Source: Patescibacteria group bacterium (GTDB taxonomy: Bacteria > Patescibacteriota > Microgenomatia > Woykebacterales > 2-01-FULL-43-14). Taken from it: a stretch of DNA of 64,000 nt. Of this stretch, positions 9,625-37,320 are shown piece after piece. The stretch's first letter is position 1. Every line of letters starts with the position of its first letter. The notes below the pieces were generated by a model. That model did no database searches and was not told the origin of the DNA. It was given only the letters and a program-made list of their open reading frames with translations. The stretch spans positions 11,170 through 75,169 of the forward strand of contig JAMCZT010000033.1 of NCBI GenBank assembly GCA_023485445.1, written 5' to 3'. The position numbers and the translations under genes are program-made.

Positions 9625-10620
9625 TTAATCAAAATATTTTAGTCCCATGGCTTTCTTAACCAAATCCAAAGTTTCTTTTCCCTCGGCCTGTATCCTTTCG
9701 GATCCCTCTAAAATAATTTTTTCAATCAATTCCGGCCTTCCCTCGTATTCTTTTCTTTTGGCCCTAATAGGTTCTAAAAAGCCATTCAAAGCCTTTGCTA
9801 ACTTTTCTTTTACTTCTACATCCCCCACTCTGCCTTCCCGGTAACGCTTTTCCAAATCCGCTACCTCTTCTTTGTCCTTATTGAAGGCTTCGTGATAAAT
9901 AAAAACAGGATTGCCCTCTACATGGCCAGGATCTGTCGGGCGGAGACGGGTCGGGTCAGTGTACATCCTCATCACTTTCTCCAGAACAGATTCAGAATCG
10001 TCGCTTAAATAAATAGCATTTTCCAGGCTTTTGCTCATTTTAGCTTTACCATCAATTCCTGGCAGAGTCGGAACCTCACCAATTAAGACTTCCGGTAAGG
10101 GAAAAACTTCTCCATAAAGGCTATTAAACCTTTGCGCGATTTCCCTGGTTACTTCAATGTGCGATGCCTGGTCCTTACCTACTGGAACGAGGTTTGCGCG
10201 AACGATCAAAATATCAGCCGCCTGCAAAACCGGATAGCTTAAAAGACCTAAAGAGGCTGTTTCGATCTTTAAATCTCGCATTACATCTTTCAATGTCGGG
10301 ACTCTTTGTAGCCGTGGCACAGTTGTTAACATGGTAAAAAGGGTGAAAAGCGATGGTATCTGGGGAATTAAAGATTGAACAAAGATATTACTTTTCTGAG
10401 GATCGATACCCACACTTAAATAGTCAAGCACAAGGTCATTAATATTTTGCTTAACAGTTTTTAAATCTTGGTACTTCGTAGTGAGCATATGCAGATCTGC
10501 AATGATAAAGAAACAGTCATATTCGTTCTGCAAAGCAACTCGATTTTTCAGTGTCCCGACATAATGACCAAGGTGCAATTTTCCCGTCGGTCTGTCACCC
10601 GTTAAAATTCTTTTTTTCAT
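9625..10620 (-). CDS. trpS: Tryptophan--tRNA ligase
   Basis: 331 aa. GDRPTGKLHLGHYVG (HIGH) and KMSKS motifs, with class Ic TrpRS length and layout. AAGGAG lies 6 nt upstream of the ATG. Confidence 0.9.
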   Translation of the reverse strand: MKKRILTGDRPTGKLHLGHYVGTLKNRVALQNEYDCFFIIADLHMLTTKYQDLKTVKQNINDLVLDYLSVGIDPQKSNIFVQSLIPQIPSLFTLFTMLTTVPRLQRVPTLKDVMRDLKIETASLGLLSYPVLQAADILIVRANLVPVGKDQASHIEVTREIAQRFNSLYGEVFPLPEVLIGEVPTLPGIDGKAKMSKSLENAIYLSDDSESVLEKVMRMYTDPTRLRPTDPGHVEGNPVFIYHEAFNKDKEEVADLEKRYREGRVGDVEVKEKLAKALNGFLEPIRAKRKEYEGRPELIEKIILEGSERIQAEGKETLDLVKKAMGLKYFD

Positions 10621-10949: not shown

Positions 10950-11004
10950 AAAAAACCTCCGTCGTTATTCACCCTTTTTTGAGGGTAAACAAGGACGGAG
11001 GTTT
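10950..11004 (-). terminator. Intrinsic terminator of the T-box leader
   Basis: Minus strand reads AACCUCCGUC..(inner ACCC/GGGU helix)..GACGGAGGUU followed by UUUUUU. The 5' arm overlaps the antiterminator 3' strand. Confidence 0.8.
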
Positions 11005-11249
11005 GATCCAATCCGCGGTACCACCTTGCTTTAGCTAAAGAACTAAAAAAGCGTCTAAATCAATTAGACGCCGACACCGTATGCTCTTTAGCCCTTGTTG
11101 TGGCTGACTCCGATATCCGACATCAGCTTGCCTTTTGTTTACGGAAGGCTTCCGAAGAAAGCTACTTTCGCAAGGAATCTTGCGATGATTCACCTTCTCA
11201 GCTTCGTTGGGCCCATACTCCCAACTCAAACGCTTTTAAATATTCAATT
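10950..11249 (-). promoter_or_regulatory. T-box riboswitch leader (tRNA-sensing transcription attenuator) upstream of the small ORF and trpS
   Basis: Minus strand 11031-11013 reads AAGCAAGGUGGUACCGCGG, matching the T-box consensus AAnnnGGGUGGnACCGCG. A canonical antiterminator can be drawn: CAAGG / 7-nt bulge UGGUACC / GCGGA-loop-UCCGU / CCUUG. It is mutually exclusive with the terminator. A Stem III-like hairpin GCGUCUAA-uuga-UUUAGACGC lies at ~11045-11065. AGUA and GAGAAGGUGAA elements occur in the 5' part. Confidence 0.8.
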
Positions 11250-11255
11250 GTCTAT

Positions 11256-11284
11256 TTTATATCACTTTCTAAGTTAAAAGTCAA
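11256..11284 (-). promoter_or_regulatory. Promoter of the T-box leader
   Basis: Minus strand TTGACT (11284-11279), 17-nt spacer, TATAAA (11261-11256). It would give a leader of ~300 nt. Confidence 0.55.
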
Positions 11285-11295
11285 TCCTGTAGTTT

Positions 11296-11622
11296 TTAGC
11301 AGATCTTAGTTCCAACAGGAGTTTCAGAGATAACCGTCAAAAATATTGGTTTATCCGCATTGGCGCAAAGAAGCATTCCTTGCGATTCTAATCCCATTAT
11401 TTTCCTTGGTTCTAAATTAGCCACGATTACGACACTTTTATTCAGCAACTCTTCAGGCTGATAAAAAGGAGCAATCCCAGATAAAATTTGCCTCTTCTCT
11501 TCTCCCAAGTCAATCTCTAAACAAAGGAGTTTCTCTGAACCCTCAACTCGCGCTGCAACAATAATTTTTCCCACTCGTAGATCTAGCTTTTTAAATTGTT
11601 CAAATGAAATTTGCTCTGGCAT
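11296..11622 (-). CDS. tRNA-binding domain protein (CsaA/Trbp111/EMAP-like OB fold)
   Basis: 108 aa. FKKLDLRVGKI..A..VEGSEKLLCLEIDLGEE.RQILSGIA..Y.PEEL..K.VVIVANLEPRKIMG.ESQGMLL is the typical stand-alone tRNA_bind domain. Confidence 0.8.
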   Translation of the reverse strand: MPEQISFEQFKKLDLRVGKIIVAARVEGSEKLLCLEIDLGEEKRQILSGIAPFYQPEELLNKSVVIVANLEPRKIMGLESQGMLLCANADKPIFLTVISETPVGTKIC

Positions 11623-11982: not shown

Positions 11983-12057
11983 TGGTGACAGGGGGGAGAT
12001 TCGAACTCCCGACCAAGAGCTTATGAGTCTCCTGCTCTACCGCTGAGCTACCCTGTC
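11983..12057 (-). tRNA. tRNA-Met (anticodon CAU), elongator type (G1-C72). Ile2 (lysidine) identity cannot be excluded
   Basis: Hand-folded cloverleaf: GACAGGG TA GCTC AGCGGTA GAGC A GGAGA CTCATAA GCTCT TGGTC GGGAG TTCGAAT CTCCC CCCTGTC ACCA (75 nt, CCA encoded). Confidence 0.85.
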
Positions 12058-12126
12058 TTATAATAAAGCTTAACAAGAAGTCCCGCAAGGCGGGACTTTA
12101 ATGAAGAAGGGTAAAGAAAAATAGCT

Positions 12127-12201
12127 TGGTTGCGGGTGCCGGACTCGAACCGGCTTAAGTGAGATTATGAGCCTCACGGGATGCCTAACCCCCCACCCGC
12201 G
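12127..12201 (-). tRNA. tRNA-fMet-like initiator (anticodon CAU) with a C1xA72 mismatch
   Basis: CGCGGGT GG GGGG TTAGGCA TCCC G TGAGG CTCATAA TCTCA CTTAA GCCGG TTCGAGT CCGGC ACCCGCA ACCA. Only the register with unpaired C1/A72 gives a 5-bp T stem and a proper discriminator. Confidence 0.8.
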
Positions 12202-15525: not shown

Positions 15526-15600
15526 TGGTGGGACTGGATGGATTCGAACCATCGGCCCACACTTTATAAGAGTGTTGCTCTGCCACTGAGCTACAGTCCC
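15526..15600 (-). tRNA. tRNA-Ile (anticodon UAU)
   Basis: GGGACTG TA GCTC AGTGGCA GAGC A ACACT CTTATAA AGTGT GGGCC GATGG TTCGAAT CCATC CAGTCCC ACCA. 75 nt, all stems Watson-Crick. Confidence 0.85.
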
Positions 15601-33554: not shown

Positions 33555-33857
33555 TTGAAAAACTTTGGGGAGAGACTGCAAAAGGTAAGAAAGTCTCAGG
33601 GGATCTCGCAGGAACAGTTGGCGGCGCTGTTGTCCATGCACAGGACTTATATTGGCATGGTTGAGAGGGGTGAACGCAATCCAACGATGCCGACCCCGCA
33701 TTTGCGGGGGAGGTTCCAATCAATTTCGCTGAATGTAAAACTTGGCGGAGAGAGTGGGATTCGAACCCACGGACACCTTGCGATGTCACACGCTTTCCAA
33801 GCGTGCTCCTTAAACCACTCGGACACCTCTCCAAACGATCAGGCGCCACTATTCTAA
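33555..33857 (+). pseudogene. Truncated XRE-family helix-turn-helix gene running into tRNA-Ser
   Basis: The first ~45 codons (KNFGERLQKVRKSQGISQEQLAALLSMHRTYIGMVERGERNPT) form a normal HTH_3 N-terminus. The remainder is an antisense read-through of tRNA-Ser(GGA). Confidence 0.45.
33743..33832 (-). tRNA. tRNA-Ser (anticodon GGA)
   Basis: GGAGAGG TG TCCG AGTGGTTTAA GGAG .. CACGC TTGGAAA GCGTG, long variable arm, GTGGG TTCGAAT CCCAC TCTCTCC GCCA. Confidence 0.85.
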
Positions 33858-34277
33858 CAGTTTTTTCACTTGCTGAAAAATTTCCTTATCGGTCTTAAAG
33901 GTTAATTTCTCCTCAACCCGATCAACCGGAACCCATTCGGCGTTTTCGACTTCCCAATCATGGTCGGCAATATTGCCGGAAAGATACTTCATTAAGTAAA
34001 ACTTCACGGTCTTGCTTATTTTCTGGCCGTCTTGAGAATAAAAATAATGACTTTCTCCAACGTCATCGACAATTTCCGCCTCGACCCCACCTTCTTCTTT
34101 CACTTCTCGTAAAGCAGCCTCTTTCATCGATTCACCTTTGTCGATCAAACCTTTCGGAAAACTCCAGCCATGATGGCGACTATGTTGAGCAAGCAAAATA
34201 TAAACTCGGTCGTCTTCTTTCTTAAAAACTATTCCCCCACCCGAATATTCCCTTTTCCACAAACTCTTTTCTGGCAT
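33849..34277 (-). CDS. NUDIX hydrolase
   Basis: Nudix box GWSFPKGLIDKGESMKEAALREVKEEGGV. Start taken at ATG 34277 (GGGAGA Shine-Dalgarno sequence). The track start at 34289 is GTG. Confidence 0.85.
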   Translation of the reverse strand: MPEKSLWKREYSGGGIVFKKEDDRVYILLAQHSRHHGWSFPKGLIDKGESMKEAALREVKEEGGVEAEIVDDVGESHYFYSQDGQKISKTVKFYLMKYLSGNIADHDWEVENAEWVPVDRVEEKLTFKTDKEIFQQVKKLLE

Positions 34278-34307
34278 AATTTCTCCCACTGGATAAGTCC
34301 TAGCTAT

Positions 34308-34383
34308 TGGTGCGCTCGGCGGGACTCGAACCCACAGGCTTCGGCTCCGGAGGCCGACGCTCTATCCATTGAGCTACGAGCGC
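34308..34383 (-). tRNA. tRNA-Arg (anticodon CCG)
   Basis: GCGCTCG TA GCTC AATGGATA GAGC G TCGGC CTCCGGA GCCGA AGCCT GTGGG TTCGAGT CCCGC CGAGCGC ACCA. Confidence 0.85.
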
Positions 34384-34384
34384 T

Positions 34385-34476
34385 TGGCGGCGGGAGCAGG
34401 ATTCGAACCTGCGACCCCACAAAAGCGAGGTAGTTGTTTTCGAGACAACCGCTTTCGTCCACTCAGCCATCCCGCC
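34385..34476 (-). tRNA. tRNA-Ser (anticodon CGA)
   Basis: GGCGGGA TG GCTG AGTGGAC.. GTTGT CTCGAAA ACAAC, long variable arm, GCAGG TTCGAAT CCTGC TCCCGCC GCCA. Only 1 nt separates it from tRNA-Arg(CCG). Confidence 0.85.
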
Positions 34477-34492
34477 ACGTATTTTTTCAACC

Positions 34493-34729
34493 CTAAACTA
34501 ATCTTCTATTCCTAAAAGCCTGTCCTGATCCGTTTTTGAGGTATCTTTCGAATCTTAACGCACTTAACCTTTCCCTAAAGCAACAAAACCAGACCAATTC
34601 TAAAGGTCTCAGATTCTTTGTTGATTCAACATATCCCTGCTGATGTTCCTTAAACCGATTCTTTAAATTTGGCGTAGAACCAGTATAAATAGATTGGTTA
34701 TTGAGCTTTAAAAGATAAACGTAGTACAT
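34493..34729 (-). CDS. GIY-YIG nuclease superfamily small protein (UPF0213-like)
   Basis: MYYVYLLKLNNQSIYTGSTPNLKNRFKEHQQG.. = GIY-YIG motif. Start taken at the internal ATG 34729. Confidence 0.75.
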   Translation of the reverse strand: MYYVYLLKLNNQSIYTGSTPNLKNRFKEHQQGYVESTKNLRPLELVWFCCFRERLSALRFERYLKNGSGQAFRNRRLV

Positions 34730-34852
34730 ATTTACGGTAACCCTACGCATAAAGCTTCGGGTTACACACTTCGCTCTTTTAAAGTAGCTCCAAATTTCTT
34801 ACATGCATTTTTTAGTTCGTGGCCGCAGGCCACACGAAGCTTCAGCGAAGTG

Positions 34853-34928
34853 TGGTGCGCTCGGGGAGACTCGAACTCCCAACCTTCAGATCCGCAATCT
34901 GATGCTCTATCCATTAAGCTACGAGCGC
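34853..34928 (-). tRNA. tRNA-Arg (anticodon GCG)
   Basis: GCGCTCG TA GCTT AATGGATA GAGC A TCAGA TTGCGGA TCTGA AGGTT GGGAG TTCGAGT CTCCC CGAGCGC ACCA. Confidence 0.85.
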
Positions 34929-34960
34929 CTAAACGCTACACTTTAAACTTTTAACTCTGT

Positions 34961-35647
34961 CTAGGGTATTTCTTTAAAAACCGGCGCTGCCTCACTTTGA
35001 CTCTTTTCCATCGGCACGCGGTCAACTACCCCCTCAGTCATTTTTTCCCACCAGTTAGTCTTGGGGATTTCCCTAAAAGGAAGATACCTTGAGAGGATTT
35101 GTTTAATTTTATCTTGTTGTTCTGAATTAAAAAGTAGCGTTAACCGCCCTGGAAAGCCAAACTTTAGGTCAATATTTAAAATGGCCTCTCCATACTTTTG
35201 GGAAAACCAAAAATCAACTAATTCTGACCAAAGGTATTCATGCCCTCCAGTAATCACCCCTTGATCTGTAATTTTGTTTTCAATCTCATCAGGCGGGACA
35301 GTCGCTAAAACATAAATAACGAAAGCCAAAGCAATCAAAACTCCGATCAAGAGAAATTCGCGCATAAAAAGCAACAACACAGCTAAAATCAAAACCATTA
35401 GGCCAATATTGGCAAACCACTTTTTACTTCGAGGACGGAAAATTCGAGAAGGAGCTCGCCAGATAAGTAAATCCTCTGCTTTTTTTTGCTTTCCATCTTG
35501 TTCTTTGGCTCCAACCACGGGGTTTTCTAAAGTTGCGGGACTGGAACTCCCTTCCATCTTACCAATCTCTTCTTGAATCCTAGAAAGCTGCTCTTTCAAA
35601 TTTTTCAAGATGCTTTCATTTGTCGGATCGGGCATGTTATCCTCCAT
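34961..35647 (-). CDS. Hypothetical two-TM membrane protein
   Basis: 228 aa. N-terminal coiled/charged region, a TM hairpin (FANIGLMVLILAVLLLF..LLIGVLIALAFVIYVLA), and a C-terminal soluble domain. Confidence 0.55.
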   Translation of the reverse strand: MEDNMPDPTNESILKNLKEQLSRIQEEIGKMEGSSSPATLENPVVGAKEQDGKQKKAEDLLIWRAPSRIFRPRSKKWFANIGLMVLILAVLLLFMREFLLIGVLIALAFVIYVLATVPPDEIENKITDQGVITGGHEYLWSELVDFWFSQKYGEAILNIDLKFGFPGRLTLLFNSEQQDKIKQILSRYLPFREIPKTNWWEKMTEGVVDRVPMEKSQSEAAPVFKEIP

Positions 35648-35761
35648 TCGCTCTCCAATCCAGCTAAGCTAGATCGGTATCGCTCAAATTAAAAGTCCAA
35701 AATTCAAAATTATGAAAACTTACCCAGCCTCACAACTTTGCATCTTGCACTTTTAACTGTT

Positions 35762-35852
35762 TGGCGGAAGGGGAGGGATTCGAACCCCCGAGCCGCTTAA
35801 AGCGGCTGACGGTTTTCAAGACCGTTGCCTTCATCCTCTCGGCCACCCTTCC
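35762..35852 (-). tRNA. tRNA-Ser (anticodon UGA)
   Basis: GGAAGGG TG GCCG AGAGG.. ACGGT CTTGAAA ACCGT, long variable arm, GGGGG TTCGAAT CCCTC CCCTTCC GCCA. Confidence 0.85.
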
Positions 35853-35884
35853 CGACTAGCCTCAGATAAAATTCTGTTCCTGAC

Positions 35885-35977
35885 TGGCGGAGAGGGTGGG
35901 ATTCGAACCCACGAGGCACTAATTAGCACCTAGCGGTTTAGCAAACCGCCGCACTAGACCAGCTATGCGACCTCTCC
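35885..35977 (-). tRNA. tRNA-Ser (anticodon GCU)
   Basis: GGAGAGG TC GCAT AGCTGG.. GCGGT TTGCTAA ACCGC, long variable arm, GTGGG TTCGAAT CCCAC CCTCTCC GCCA. Confidence 0.85.
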
Positions 35978-36120
35978 AAACAATGAAAGGTTCAAAGTGA
36001 AAAATTAAAAGTTATTAAGCTTGAGTAACTTTCTTCTACCAACCTCAACTCTGCACTTTGCATTTTTAATTTTAATTATTAGGTGCACTATACCAAAAAA
36101 TAGGGTAAAATTCAATTCTA

Positions 36121-36816
36121 ATGAGCCTTTTTAACTACTTTTCTGATTTTTTGCTTGACCTAGTCTTTCCTAAAAAGTGCGTGGTTTGTGGAAAAGCAGA
36201 TATGTATCTATGCCCAAACTGCCTAAAAAAGGTACCTGTAAACCACACATCTATCTGTTATCGCTGCCAGTGCCCGTCGATCGGGGGATTTACCCATCCC
36301 CGTTGTCTGACCAGGTCGGGCCTAGACGGAGTCCTCATCGTCTCTCCTTACGAAAGAGTTTTAAAAAGAGCCCTGCATCTTTTCAAGTACCGTTTTGTGA
36401 AAGAGCTTCACGCACCTTTAGGAAATCTATTAGCCAACTATCTTCAGGGAAAACTTTACCAGATCGACATGGTCGTTCCCGTCCCACTTCATCAAAAAAG
36501 GCTCAACCAGAGAGAATTTAACCAAGCTTTACTTTTAGCCCAAGTTGTAAGCCAAAAATTCTCCCTCCCCCTTAGGTCAGAAGTTTTAATTAGGAAATAC
36601 CCAACCTCGCCACAAGCAGAGTTGTCAAAAGAAAAAAGAGTTCAAAATCTCAAAAAAGCTTTTCTTTGTCCCCTGGCGAGTGAAGTCCGCGGAAAAAATG
36701 TTCTCTTGGTTGACGATGTTGCTACTACTTTTACTACCTTAGAGGAATGCTGCGCCACTCTAAAAAAGGCAGGCGCTGCTAAAGTCTGGGCCGCAGTACT
36801 AGCCCATGGAAAGTGA
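36121..36816 (+). CDS. comFC: ComF family protein (ComFC-like phosphoribosyltransferase-fold competence protein)
   Basis: 231 aa. N-terminal Cys4 (CVVCGK..CPNC), PLHQKRLNQREFNQA, PRT-type loop VLLVDDVATTFTTL. Confidence 0.8.
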   Translation: MSLFNYFSDFLLDLVFPKKCVVCGKADMYLCPNCLKKVPVNHTSICYRCQCPSIGGFTHPRCLTRSGLDGVLIVSPYERVLKRALHLFKYRFVKELHAPLGNLLANYLQGKLYQIDMVVPVPLHQKRLNQREFNQALLLAQVVSQKFSLPLRSEVLIRKYPTSPQAELSKEKRVQNLKKAFLCPLASEVRGKNVLLVDDVATTFTTLEECCATLKKAGAAKVWAAVLAHGK

Positions 36817-36950
36817 TGTCTCCCATGGGCAAGATTCTGCGGAATCCGTCTTTTTGTTCTGATTCAAATCATATCCCAGCTTGAAAGATAGGGTTTAAAG
36901 AAATAACGTCAAACTAAAACTGGCAAGCTAGTTGAAGCCTTGGCGAAAAC

Positions 36951-37320
36951 TGGTGGAGCTGAGGGGAATTGCACCCCTGTCCGAAAAAACGACCCCGAAG
37001 CGGAACTACAAGCTTAGTTGGTTGAAAAATTCCTCACTAACAAGCTCAACCAACAAAATTTGTCAGTGAGTAAGGTTGATAAAAGGTGGATAAAACCGGG
37101 GAAACCAACCCCAAGAAATCCATCCCGACTAGGGTCGCACCCTGACCACTCCGTCAGGAGAGAGTAATCAAGACGCCTACTTGCTGTTACGCAGTCGCGT
37201 AAGCATAAGCAGGAGAAAATGCTCTATTGGCATTTATAATTGTGGTAAAGTTTAACGGCTTTTTACCATGGCCGGCTTGCCCACTTTCAAAGTGCCTTCC
37301 CGTCGAAGCTAAACAGCCCC
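36951..37320 (-). ncRNA. ssrA: tmRNA (SsrA), one-piece
   Basis: Minus strand starts GGGGCUGUUUAGCUUCGACGGG and ends GGGGUGCAAUUCCCCUCAGCUCCACCA, with an acceptor stem containing G3:U. Candidate tag ORF: GCC AAU AGA GCA UUU UCU CCU GCU UAU GCU UAC GCG ACU GCG UAA. Confidence 0.9.

Follow-up and report, generated by a model that had tools for sequence, protein, structure and literature searches.

T-box riboswitches with an ultrashort Stem I have been described as a translational class, all members of which regulate ileS and respond to tRNA-Ile (10.1101/2023.02.28.530422), and in ileS T-boxes a short Stem I and Stem II together bind the tRNA (PMC7583486). The ileS-only and mostly translational scope of this class rests on one review and one preprint. 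The abstract of Sherwood and colleagues from 2015 reportedly calls many, not all, atypical ileS leaders translational, and a terminator-coupled ileS leader with a short Stem I may already be on record. A full-text literature search returned no paper tying T-boxes to Patescibacteria, the candidate phyla radiation (CPR) or Saccharibacteria. Here we describe a leader located 5′ of trpS on a 64,000 nt stretch of DNA, designated the window, from a Patescibacteria group bacterium (assembly GCA_023485445.1, contig JAMCZT010000033.1, positions 11,170 to 75,169). The leader is probably a tRNA-Trp-responsive T-box that directs read-through into trpS by transcription attenuation, with a decoding module built on an ultrashort Stem I, and T-boxes would thereby be extended to Patescibacteria. 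Coordinates are window positions, and all features of the leader and of the trpS region are on the minus strand.

The trpS leader and its Stem I

The region from 11284 to 10950 contains a sigma70-type promoter, a T-box leader and an intrinsic terminator, all positioned 5′ of trpS (9625-10620), the gene predicted to be regulated. It encodes a tryptophan--tRNA ligase identical to MCL5411783.1, which is annotated as from a Patescibacteria group bacterium. A first-pass annotation, made from the sequence alone, had placed a T-box with a canonical antiterminator here, and all of the parts are present. A scan of the window with Rfam at the gathering threshold reported no T-box. In E-value mode, the T-box model RF00230 aligned end to end (model positions 1-219) with 11239-10988, at 47.5 bits and with E = 4e-9 when 1 kb was searched and 2.5e-7 for the whole window, and this was the only T-box match in the 64 kb. 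The covariance-model check suggested by the first-pass annotation gave a match with a significant E-value and a score far short of the gathering threshold of 93 bits. In the alignment, 5 nt replace the 68 model positions 26-93 that correspond to distal Stem I; the AGAGA motif and the distal loop are lost with them, as is the GAA on the 3′ side of the specifier loop. It is the absence of this distal Stem I that accounts for the low score. Judged by its sequence, the leader is a T-box in every feature on the discriminator side and in its Stem II and IIA/B modules.

The promoter (11284-11256), identified by sequence reading and also noted in the first-pass annotation, has TTGACT (11284-11279) separated by a 17-nt spacer from a -10 element, TATAAA (11261-11256), with an extended -10 TG at 11264-11263 (TG-n-TATAAA, n = a). 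It was not listed by a consensus promoter scan because that scan demands a T at the last position of the -10 element. Transcription is predicted to start at ~11249, ~15 nt 5′ of Stem I; the distance from the promoter to Stem I is ~22 nt. An equivalent -35/17/-10 promoter lies 20-23 nt 5′ of Stem I in all seven of the reduced leaders that we identified, the window counted.

Stem I (11234-11200) reads AGC-GUUU-GA-GUUGGG-AGUAUGGG-CCCAAC-GA-A-GCU. The C-stem AGC/GCU (11234-11232 with 11202-11200) is followed by a K-turn-like element, with a GUUU bulge and GA opposite GA (11227-11226 and 11205-11204), a 6-bp helix GUUGGG/CCCAAC (11225-11220 with 11211-11206) and an 8-nt terminal loop, AGUAUGGG, that can be divided as AGUA-UGG-G (11219-11212). 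The loop contains the Trp codon UGG (11215-11213), followed by the purine G at 11212 and then by the helix. This is the standard position of a specifier, namely codon, one purine, then helix (TBDB rule, PMC7778990). The codon matches the downstream gene, trpS, and is kept in seven loci. The first-pass annotation had noticed UGG in the loop of this hairpin and concluded that either Stem I is reduced or non-standard or its own hand fold was wrong. The fold was right; the hairpin is present in the minimum-free-energy fold of the leader and is conserved, with covariation, in six other loci. The assignment of an ultrashort Stem I is based on the deletion in the Rfam alignment, the folds, the covariation and its conservation in the seven loci. 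A long Stem I with an AG bulge and a distal loop, the elements that form an interdigitated double T-loop stacking on the tRNA elbow, was not found in the window leader, and there is no room for a hidden one because the transcript is predicted to start ~15 nt before Stem I and Stem II abuts it on the other side.

Stem II (11199-11154) directly follows Stem I, is supported by the Rfam alignment and was found in all seven loci. It has a lower helix, GAGAAGGU/GCUUUCUUC, and the two halves of an S-turn, GAA (11191-11189) and AGUA (11166-11163). It is followed by Stem IIA (GGAA/UUCC) and the IIB pseudoknot, arranged around the F-box-like sequence CCGUAAAC (11153-11130), with the pseudoknot formed by GCC in the IIA loop (11149-11147) and GGC (11132-11130). 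The window leader thus has the complete set of Stem II, S-turn and IIA/B pseudoknot. From Stem I through the pseudoknot, the decoding module occupies ~105 nt (11234-11130), a compactness of possible interest for the engineering of tRNA sensors.

Conservation and covariation in related leaders

The closest relatives of the window tryptophanyl-tRNA synthetase (TrpRS) are 62-79% identical and come from metagenome-assembled genomes (MAGs) labelled Patescibacteria or Chloroflexota. Leaders of the reduced form were found at seven independent loci, the window, L162, L007, L165, L166/167, L168/169 and L170, all in MAGs labelled Patescibacteria or Saccharibacteria. The six relatives score 39-57 bits against RF00230. 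Among ~170 fetched loci, a helix of at least 4 bp enclosing AGNAUGGR occurs only in the reduced T-box leaders and at one stray site.

In L162, which is syntenic with the window and encodes a TrpRS 79% identical, the Stem I hairpin is GCUGGG-AGAAUGGG-CCCAGC. It is UGGGG-AGAAUGGG-CCCCG in both L007 (from a MAG labelled Saccharibacteria) and L165, GGAGAGG-AGAAUGGG-CCUCUUC in L166/167 and again in L170, and GAAGAGG-AGAAUGGG-CCUCUUC in L168/169 (a Patescibacteria MAG). The specifier loop, AG(U/A)AUGGG, is therefore AGAAUGGG in all six relatives and AGUAUGGG in the window, with one base that varies. Across the seven loci, 88.6% of the cells in the Stem I helix are paired and four of the seven pairs exhibit both-sided change. 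None of 500 shuffles reached this covariation score, and slid registers scored far lower.

The pseudoknot provides further examples of compensatory change. GCC/GGC in the window is ACC/GGU in L162, and GCUAU/AUAGC in L168 is GCUAC/GUAGC in L170. In the other reduced loci the pairing sequences are wholly different and still complementary (UGCA/UGCA, UGA/UCA and UCCG/CGGA). Complementarity over 3 nt would alone be weak evidence for a pseudoknot; the paired changes argue for it more strongly. Antiterminator helix A1 similarly switches from CAAGG/CCUUG to UAAGG/CCUUA among the reduced leaders.

The comparison was based on short Stem I segments and on a script that located each element in turn (-35/17/-10 promoter, Stem I, Stem II/S-turn, IIA, IIB, Stem III, A1, bulge, A2 and terminator/U-run). 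All of these modules are present, in the same order and with complementary helices, in each of the seven leaders. In every case, a terminator hairpin is positioned directly before a run of 5-7 U and trpS is the gene downstream. A MAFFT alignment of the whole leaders of the window and L007 was rejected, as insertions in Stem II threw Stem I out of register.

Canonical, full-length T-boxes are located directly 5′ of trpS in the Chloroflexota loci L002-L004, with scores of 88-115 bits and an internal loop that reads GAA-UGG-A/G. Canonical T-boxes of the same kind are present at L073, L085, L086, L096, L105 and L161. No T-box, or a canonical one, was found at L163, L164, L171-L176 and most of the loci from genome and metagenome scans. 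The reduced form has a patchy distribution in CPR genomes, and many TrpRS relatives have no T-box leader. The reduced leaders likely originated when a canonical UGG T-box, resembling those of the Chloroflexota relatives with TrpRS of the same clade, lost its distal Stem I by deletion. To us the specifier loop looks like a fusion of the two sides of the canonical loop (5′ AG..., 3′ ...AA-UGG-R), which fits such a deletion.

Antiterminator, terminator and predicted ligand

The T-box sequence AAGCAAGGUGGUACCGCGG (11031-11013), recognized by sequence reading, forms part of an antiterminator that extends from 11031 to 10990. Helix A1, CAAGG/CCUUG (11028-11024 with 10994-10990), and helix A2, GCGGA/UCCGU (11016-11012 with 10999-10995), flank a 7-nt bulge, UGGUACC (11023-11017), so that a UGGNACC bulge is present. 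Folded alone, this antiterminator has a free energy of -12.5 kcal/mol. The intrinsic terminator is a hairpin (11004-10953) with a 3′ arm that runs into U6 (10955-10950); it has a free energy of -33.2 kcal/mol (z = -8.2 versus shuffles). The 3′ half of the antiterminator doubles as the terminator 5′ arm, which contains CCUCCGUCCUUG from A2 and A1, and the two structures are therefore mutually exclusive. The T-box sequence, antiterminator and competing terminator with U6 proposed in the first-pass annotation are thereby confirmed at 11031-10950. A terminator predicted to be much more stable than the antiterminator is the usual arrangement in T-boxes, in which the antiterminator needs the tRNA to win.

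Two further structures separate the decoding module from the antiterminator. Stem III, GCUAAAGA/UCUUUAGC, with purine flanks AAGGG and UAAAG, was recognized at 11092-11034 by alignment and folding. Nested within its loop is a G+C-rich hairpin followed by U6 (11072-11045) that a consensus scan returned as terminator-like. Of the other six reduced leaders, only L162 has an equivalent, with a different stem sequence. The hairpin might terminate transcription early or serve as a pause site that gives the tRNA longer to bind. Between IIA/B and Stem III, there is also a linker hairpin, GCUGAUGUCGGAUAUCGGAGUCAGC (11127-11103), identified by folding, with a GAUGUC motif that is found in the relatives; (C)CGAUGUC / GUCGG recurs at this position in all seven reduced leaders, and this conservation suggests a role beyond spacing.

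The mechanism that we propose is modelled on established T-box structures, including the solved actinobacterial ileS complexes (review PMC7583486). The CCA anticodon of tRNA-Trp would pair with UGG in the Stem I loop, and the purines of the Stem II S-turn would clamp the codon-anticodon duplex from the side, with the K-turn and the pseudoknot fixing the placement of Stem II. The tRNA elbow would not be contacted, as the leader has no double T-loop platform. The NCCA 3′-end of uncharged tRNA would pair with UGGU in the bulge, through U-A73 or a wobble with G73, stabilizing the antiterminator and allowing read-through to trpS. A charged tRNA would be unable to pair with the bulge and the terminator would then form.

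From the bulge sequence, the first-pass annotation had predicted a tRNA with discriminator base A, and this does not hold as more than a weak inference. The bulge is UGGU in the window versus UGGC in all six reduced relatives, and the tRNA-Trp genes adjacent to L007 and L165 have a CCA anticodon, an encoded CCA end and G73, which match their UGGC bulges. A U opposite G73, forming a wobble pair, is documented for 46% of Trp T-boxes (TBDB, PMC7778990). No tRNA-Trp gene is present in the 64-kb window, and a cognate tRNA-Trp with A73 is possible, without being the better guess.

The two tRNA-Trp genes begin within a few bases 3′ of the terminator of a reduced T-box (L007 1116-1534, L165 1612-1985). 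In both loci the order is T-box terminator, tRNA-Trp, an open reading frame (ORF) of 277-280 codons and trpS. The 277-280-aa products are 70% identical to each other and have no Pfam or NCBIfam match. No good promoter was seen between the T-box terminator and the tRNA-Trp gene in L007 or L165, and therefore the riboswitch seems to control transcription of the gene for its own ligand. We know of no report of a T-box riboswitch that controls the gene of its own ligand tRNA.

Sequences flanking the leader

Between the terminator and trpS, there is a strong hairpin (10701-10673), a palindrome, AATCTTAAATTTAGA (10668-10654), and, just 5′ of trpS, a -10-like box, TATACT (10652-10647). In relatives, a well-conserved TTATTAGYGTATAAT is located 10-25 nt before the trpS ATG; the conserved trpS-proximal element was found in L162 (2920-2985), L166 (2965-2990), L168, L170, L007 and L173, and TTATTAGYGTATAAT is also present in one locus without a T-box. 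The TATACT / TTATTAGYGTATAAT region is probably a second, trpS-proximal promoter, and possibly an operator is also located there.

A 59-codon ORF (10920-10741), with a strong Shine-Dalgarno (SD) sequence and ATG, starts 30 nt past the T-box terminator and would encode a product with 5 Trp and 4 Cys residues. L162 has a 59-codon ORF at the same place, and conservation between the two is limited to the SD, the ATG and an early UGG-GG. As the products from the window and L162 are not similar, and a Pfam search gave no match, a conserved Trp-rich protein was rejected as an explanation, and the ORF probably does not encode one.

Directly upstream of the T-box promoter, 11296-11622 (minus strand) encodes a 108-aa protein with a single tRNA_bind domain (PF01588), which we take to be of the Trbp111/CsaA type. 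The gene is in the same position in L162 and was not seen at the other reduced T-box loci within the flanks fetched. A tRNA-binding protein encoded beside a T-box that has no elbow-binding platform may be a coincidence.

Weighing the alternatives

Several observations weigh against a tRNA-Trp-responsive, terminator-coupled T-box with an ultrashort Stem I. The 47.5 bits of the leader are about half of the RF00230 gathering score. The K-turn-like base of Stem I in the window, AGC-GUUU-GA ... GA-A-GCU, is imperfect, with a 4-nt bulge and an extra A, and in L166, L168 and L170 Watson-Crick or wobble pairs take the place of the K-turn G.A pairs; a textbook K-turn, AGC-GUU-GA ... GA-GCU, is present in L007 and L165. 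Approximately 330 nt, containing the strong hairpin and the -10-like box, separate the terminator from the start of trpS (10620). If trpS has its own promoter, the T-box may supplement basal expression without being a full gate. Transcriptional T-boxes, furthermore, generally require the elbow platform of a long Stem I for fast capture of the tRNA, in contrast to translational T-boxes, in which the platform is expendable and to which tolerance of a short Stem I is held to be limited (PMC7583486). A terminator-coupled ultrashort form runs counter to this expectation, and such a leader might work poorly, or differently. Since the reduced leaders score 39-57 bits and the Rfam gathering threshold is 93, standard annotation with Rfam overlooks all of them.

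In the L166, L168 and L170 subgroup, an extra hairpin of variable length lies between Stems I and II (L166 2657-2715, L168 2668-2740, L170 2684-2745) and possibly forms a three-way junction that replaces the kink. In these three loci, trpS is followed by tyrS.

The alternative that survives best, although we consider it unlikely, is a decaying relic in which distal Stem I and with it tRNA sensing have been lost, leaving a constitutive attenuator and trpS transcribed from the proximal promoter. Loss of the elbow platform does abolish read-through in the transcriptional T-boxes studied (PMC7583486), a -10-like TATACT and the conserved TTATTAGYGTATAAT precede trpS, and many CPR relatives do without any T-box. 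A relic does not, however, explain why the reduced form is kept in seven loci when the TrpRS are only ~68-79% identical, why the specifier loop is invariant save for one base, why Stem I and the pseudoknot have compensatory changes, and why the S-turn, T-box bulge, promoter and terminator are intact. Without selection, not all of these features would persist.

A switch that acts on translation, or on the short downstream ORF, instead of on transcription termination is doubtful to a greater degree. Every ultrashort T-box described so far is translational and acts by SD sequestration (10.1101/2023.02.28.530422), and the SD and ATG of the ORF that begins 30 nt past the U-run are, with the early UGG, kept in L162. 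The 59-aa ORFs of the window and L162 are nevertheless without similarity, in each of the seven loci U5-U7 directly follows the alternative hairpin, as is typical of an intrinsic terminator, and the hairpin contains no SD that is suitably spaced from a start codon. The closest SD-ATG pair is not part of the alternative (terminator) helix, and in L166, L168 and L170 the SD of trpS is ~100 nt away. Transcription attenuation is the natural reading because all seven leaders have a hairpin followed by 5-7 U and no SD is trapped in the hairpin.

It is very unlikely that the leader is a functional T-box in which an additional aid, either a pause programmed by the nested hairpin and U6 or a Trbp111/CsaA-like protein, replaces the elbow contact. 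The hairpin with U6 at 11072-11045 is conserved in L162, and a tRNA_bind gene is directly upstream in both the window and L162, but the two are missing from the other five reduced leaders as far as the fetched flanks extend, and both may be lineage-specific coincidences. That the specifier is one of the other triplets overlapping in AGUAUGGG (GUA, UAU, AUG or GGG), with a ligand other than tRNA-Trp, is scarcely credible: UAU (Tyr) results from an A-to-U change in the window alone and does not occur in the other six loops, UGG with its single purine before the helix is placed as is standard for a specifier (PMC7778990), trpS is the downstream gene in every case, a tRNA-Trp gene follows two of the leaders and the canonical relatives read GAA-UGG-R.

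Other RNA genes in the window

A gene for tRNA-Ile with the anticodon UAU, which is uncommon in bacteria, is present in the window (15526-15600), in L162 (18-93) and in L009 (3696-3771); in the window it lies near tandem tRNA-Met (CAU) genes (11983-12201). Four tRNA-Ser and two tRNA-Arg genes (33743-35977, minus strand) are part of a dense RNA gene region (33743-37320) that ends with a tmRNA gene (36951-37320; 126 bits), for which the predicted tag peptide is ANRAFSPAYAYATA.

Comparison with known T-box systems

The preferred reading, a tRNA-Trp T-box that attenuates transcription of trpS, resembles the ultrashort ileS T-boxes of Mycobacterium tuberculosis, M. smegmatis and Nocardia farcinica in its decoding module. 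In both, Stem I is a short helix with a terminal loop that contains the specifier, set on a K-turn in the ileS T-boxes and on a K-turn-like base in the window leader; both lack the double T-loop platform, and in both Stem II with its S-turn and IIA/B follow directly (PMC7583486; 10.1101/2023.02.28.530422). The discriminator is likewise composed of Stem III and a bulged helix that pairs with NCCA. The ultrashort ileS T-boxes differ in that they bind tRNA-Ile, regulate ileS, are found in Actinobacteria and act through SD sequestration, whereas the window leader has a UGG specifier, precedes trpS, comes from Patescibacteria and ends in a terminator hairpin and U-run; the likeness is one of description and not of compared sequences. 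The window leader thus has the Stem I architecture of the ultrashort class, without its ileS/tRNA-Ile association and without an SD sequestrator.

With the canonical Trp T-boxes of Chloroflexota (L002-L004, L085, L161) and Cohnella (L073), the leader shares UGG followed by a purine, a UGGN bulge, a terminator with a U-run, Stem II, IIA/B and Stem III, and the TrpRS encoded downstream are of the same clade (62-72% identity). The canonical leaders, in contrast, keep a full Stem I, with the AGAGA motif, distal loop and GAA-UGG-R internal loop, and score 88-115 versus 47.5 bits.

We lean, by a little, towards the fuller proposal that this is a cotranscriptional T-box without elbow contact, which arose separately in Patescibacteria, with Trp specificity and by apparent deletion from an ancestor resembling the Chloroflexota T-boxes, and which in L007 and L165 controls the gene of its ligand. 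If true, an ultrashort Stem I also exists outside the actinobacterial ileS switches that act on translation. A conserved ultrashort Trp T-box coupled to an intrinsic terminator would be a natural counter-example to the kinetic argument for a long Stem I and would allow that argument to be tested directly.

The glyQS T-boxes of Bacillus and Geobacillus are also transcriptional and have a pared-down architecture, but they keep the long Stem I and have no Stem II or IIA/B, and the window leader is the reverse (PMC7583486). Given its sequence features, it appears best filed as a Trp-specific, terminator-coupled variant of the ultrashort Stem I form in CPR bacteria, a variant that introduces no new principle.

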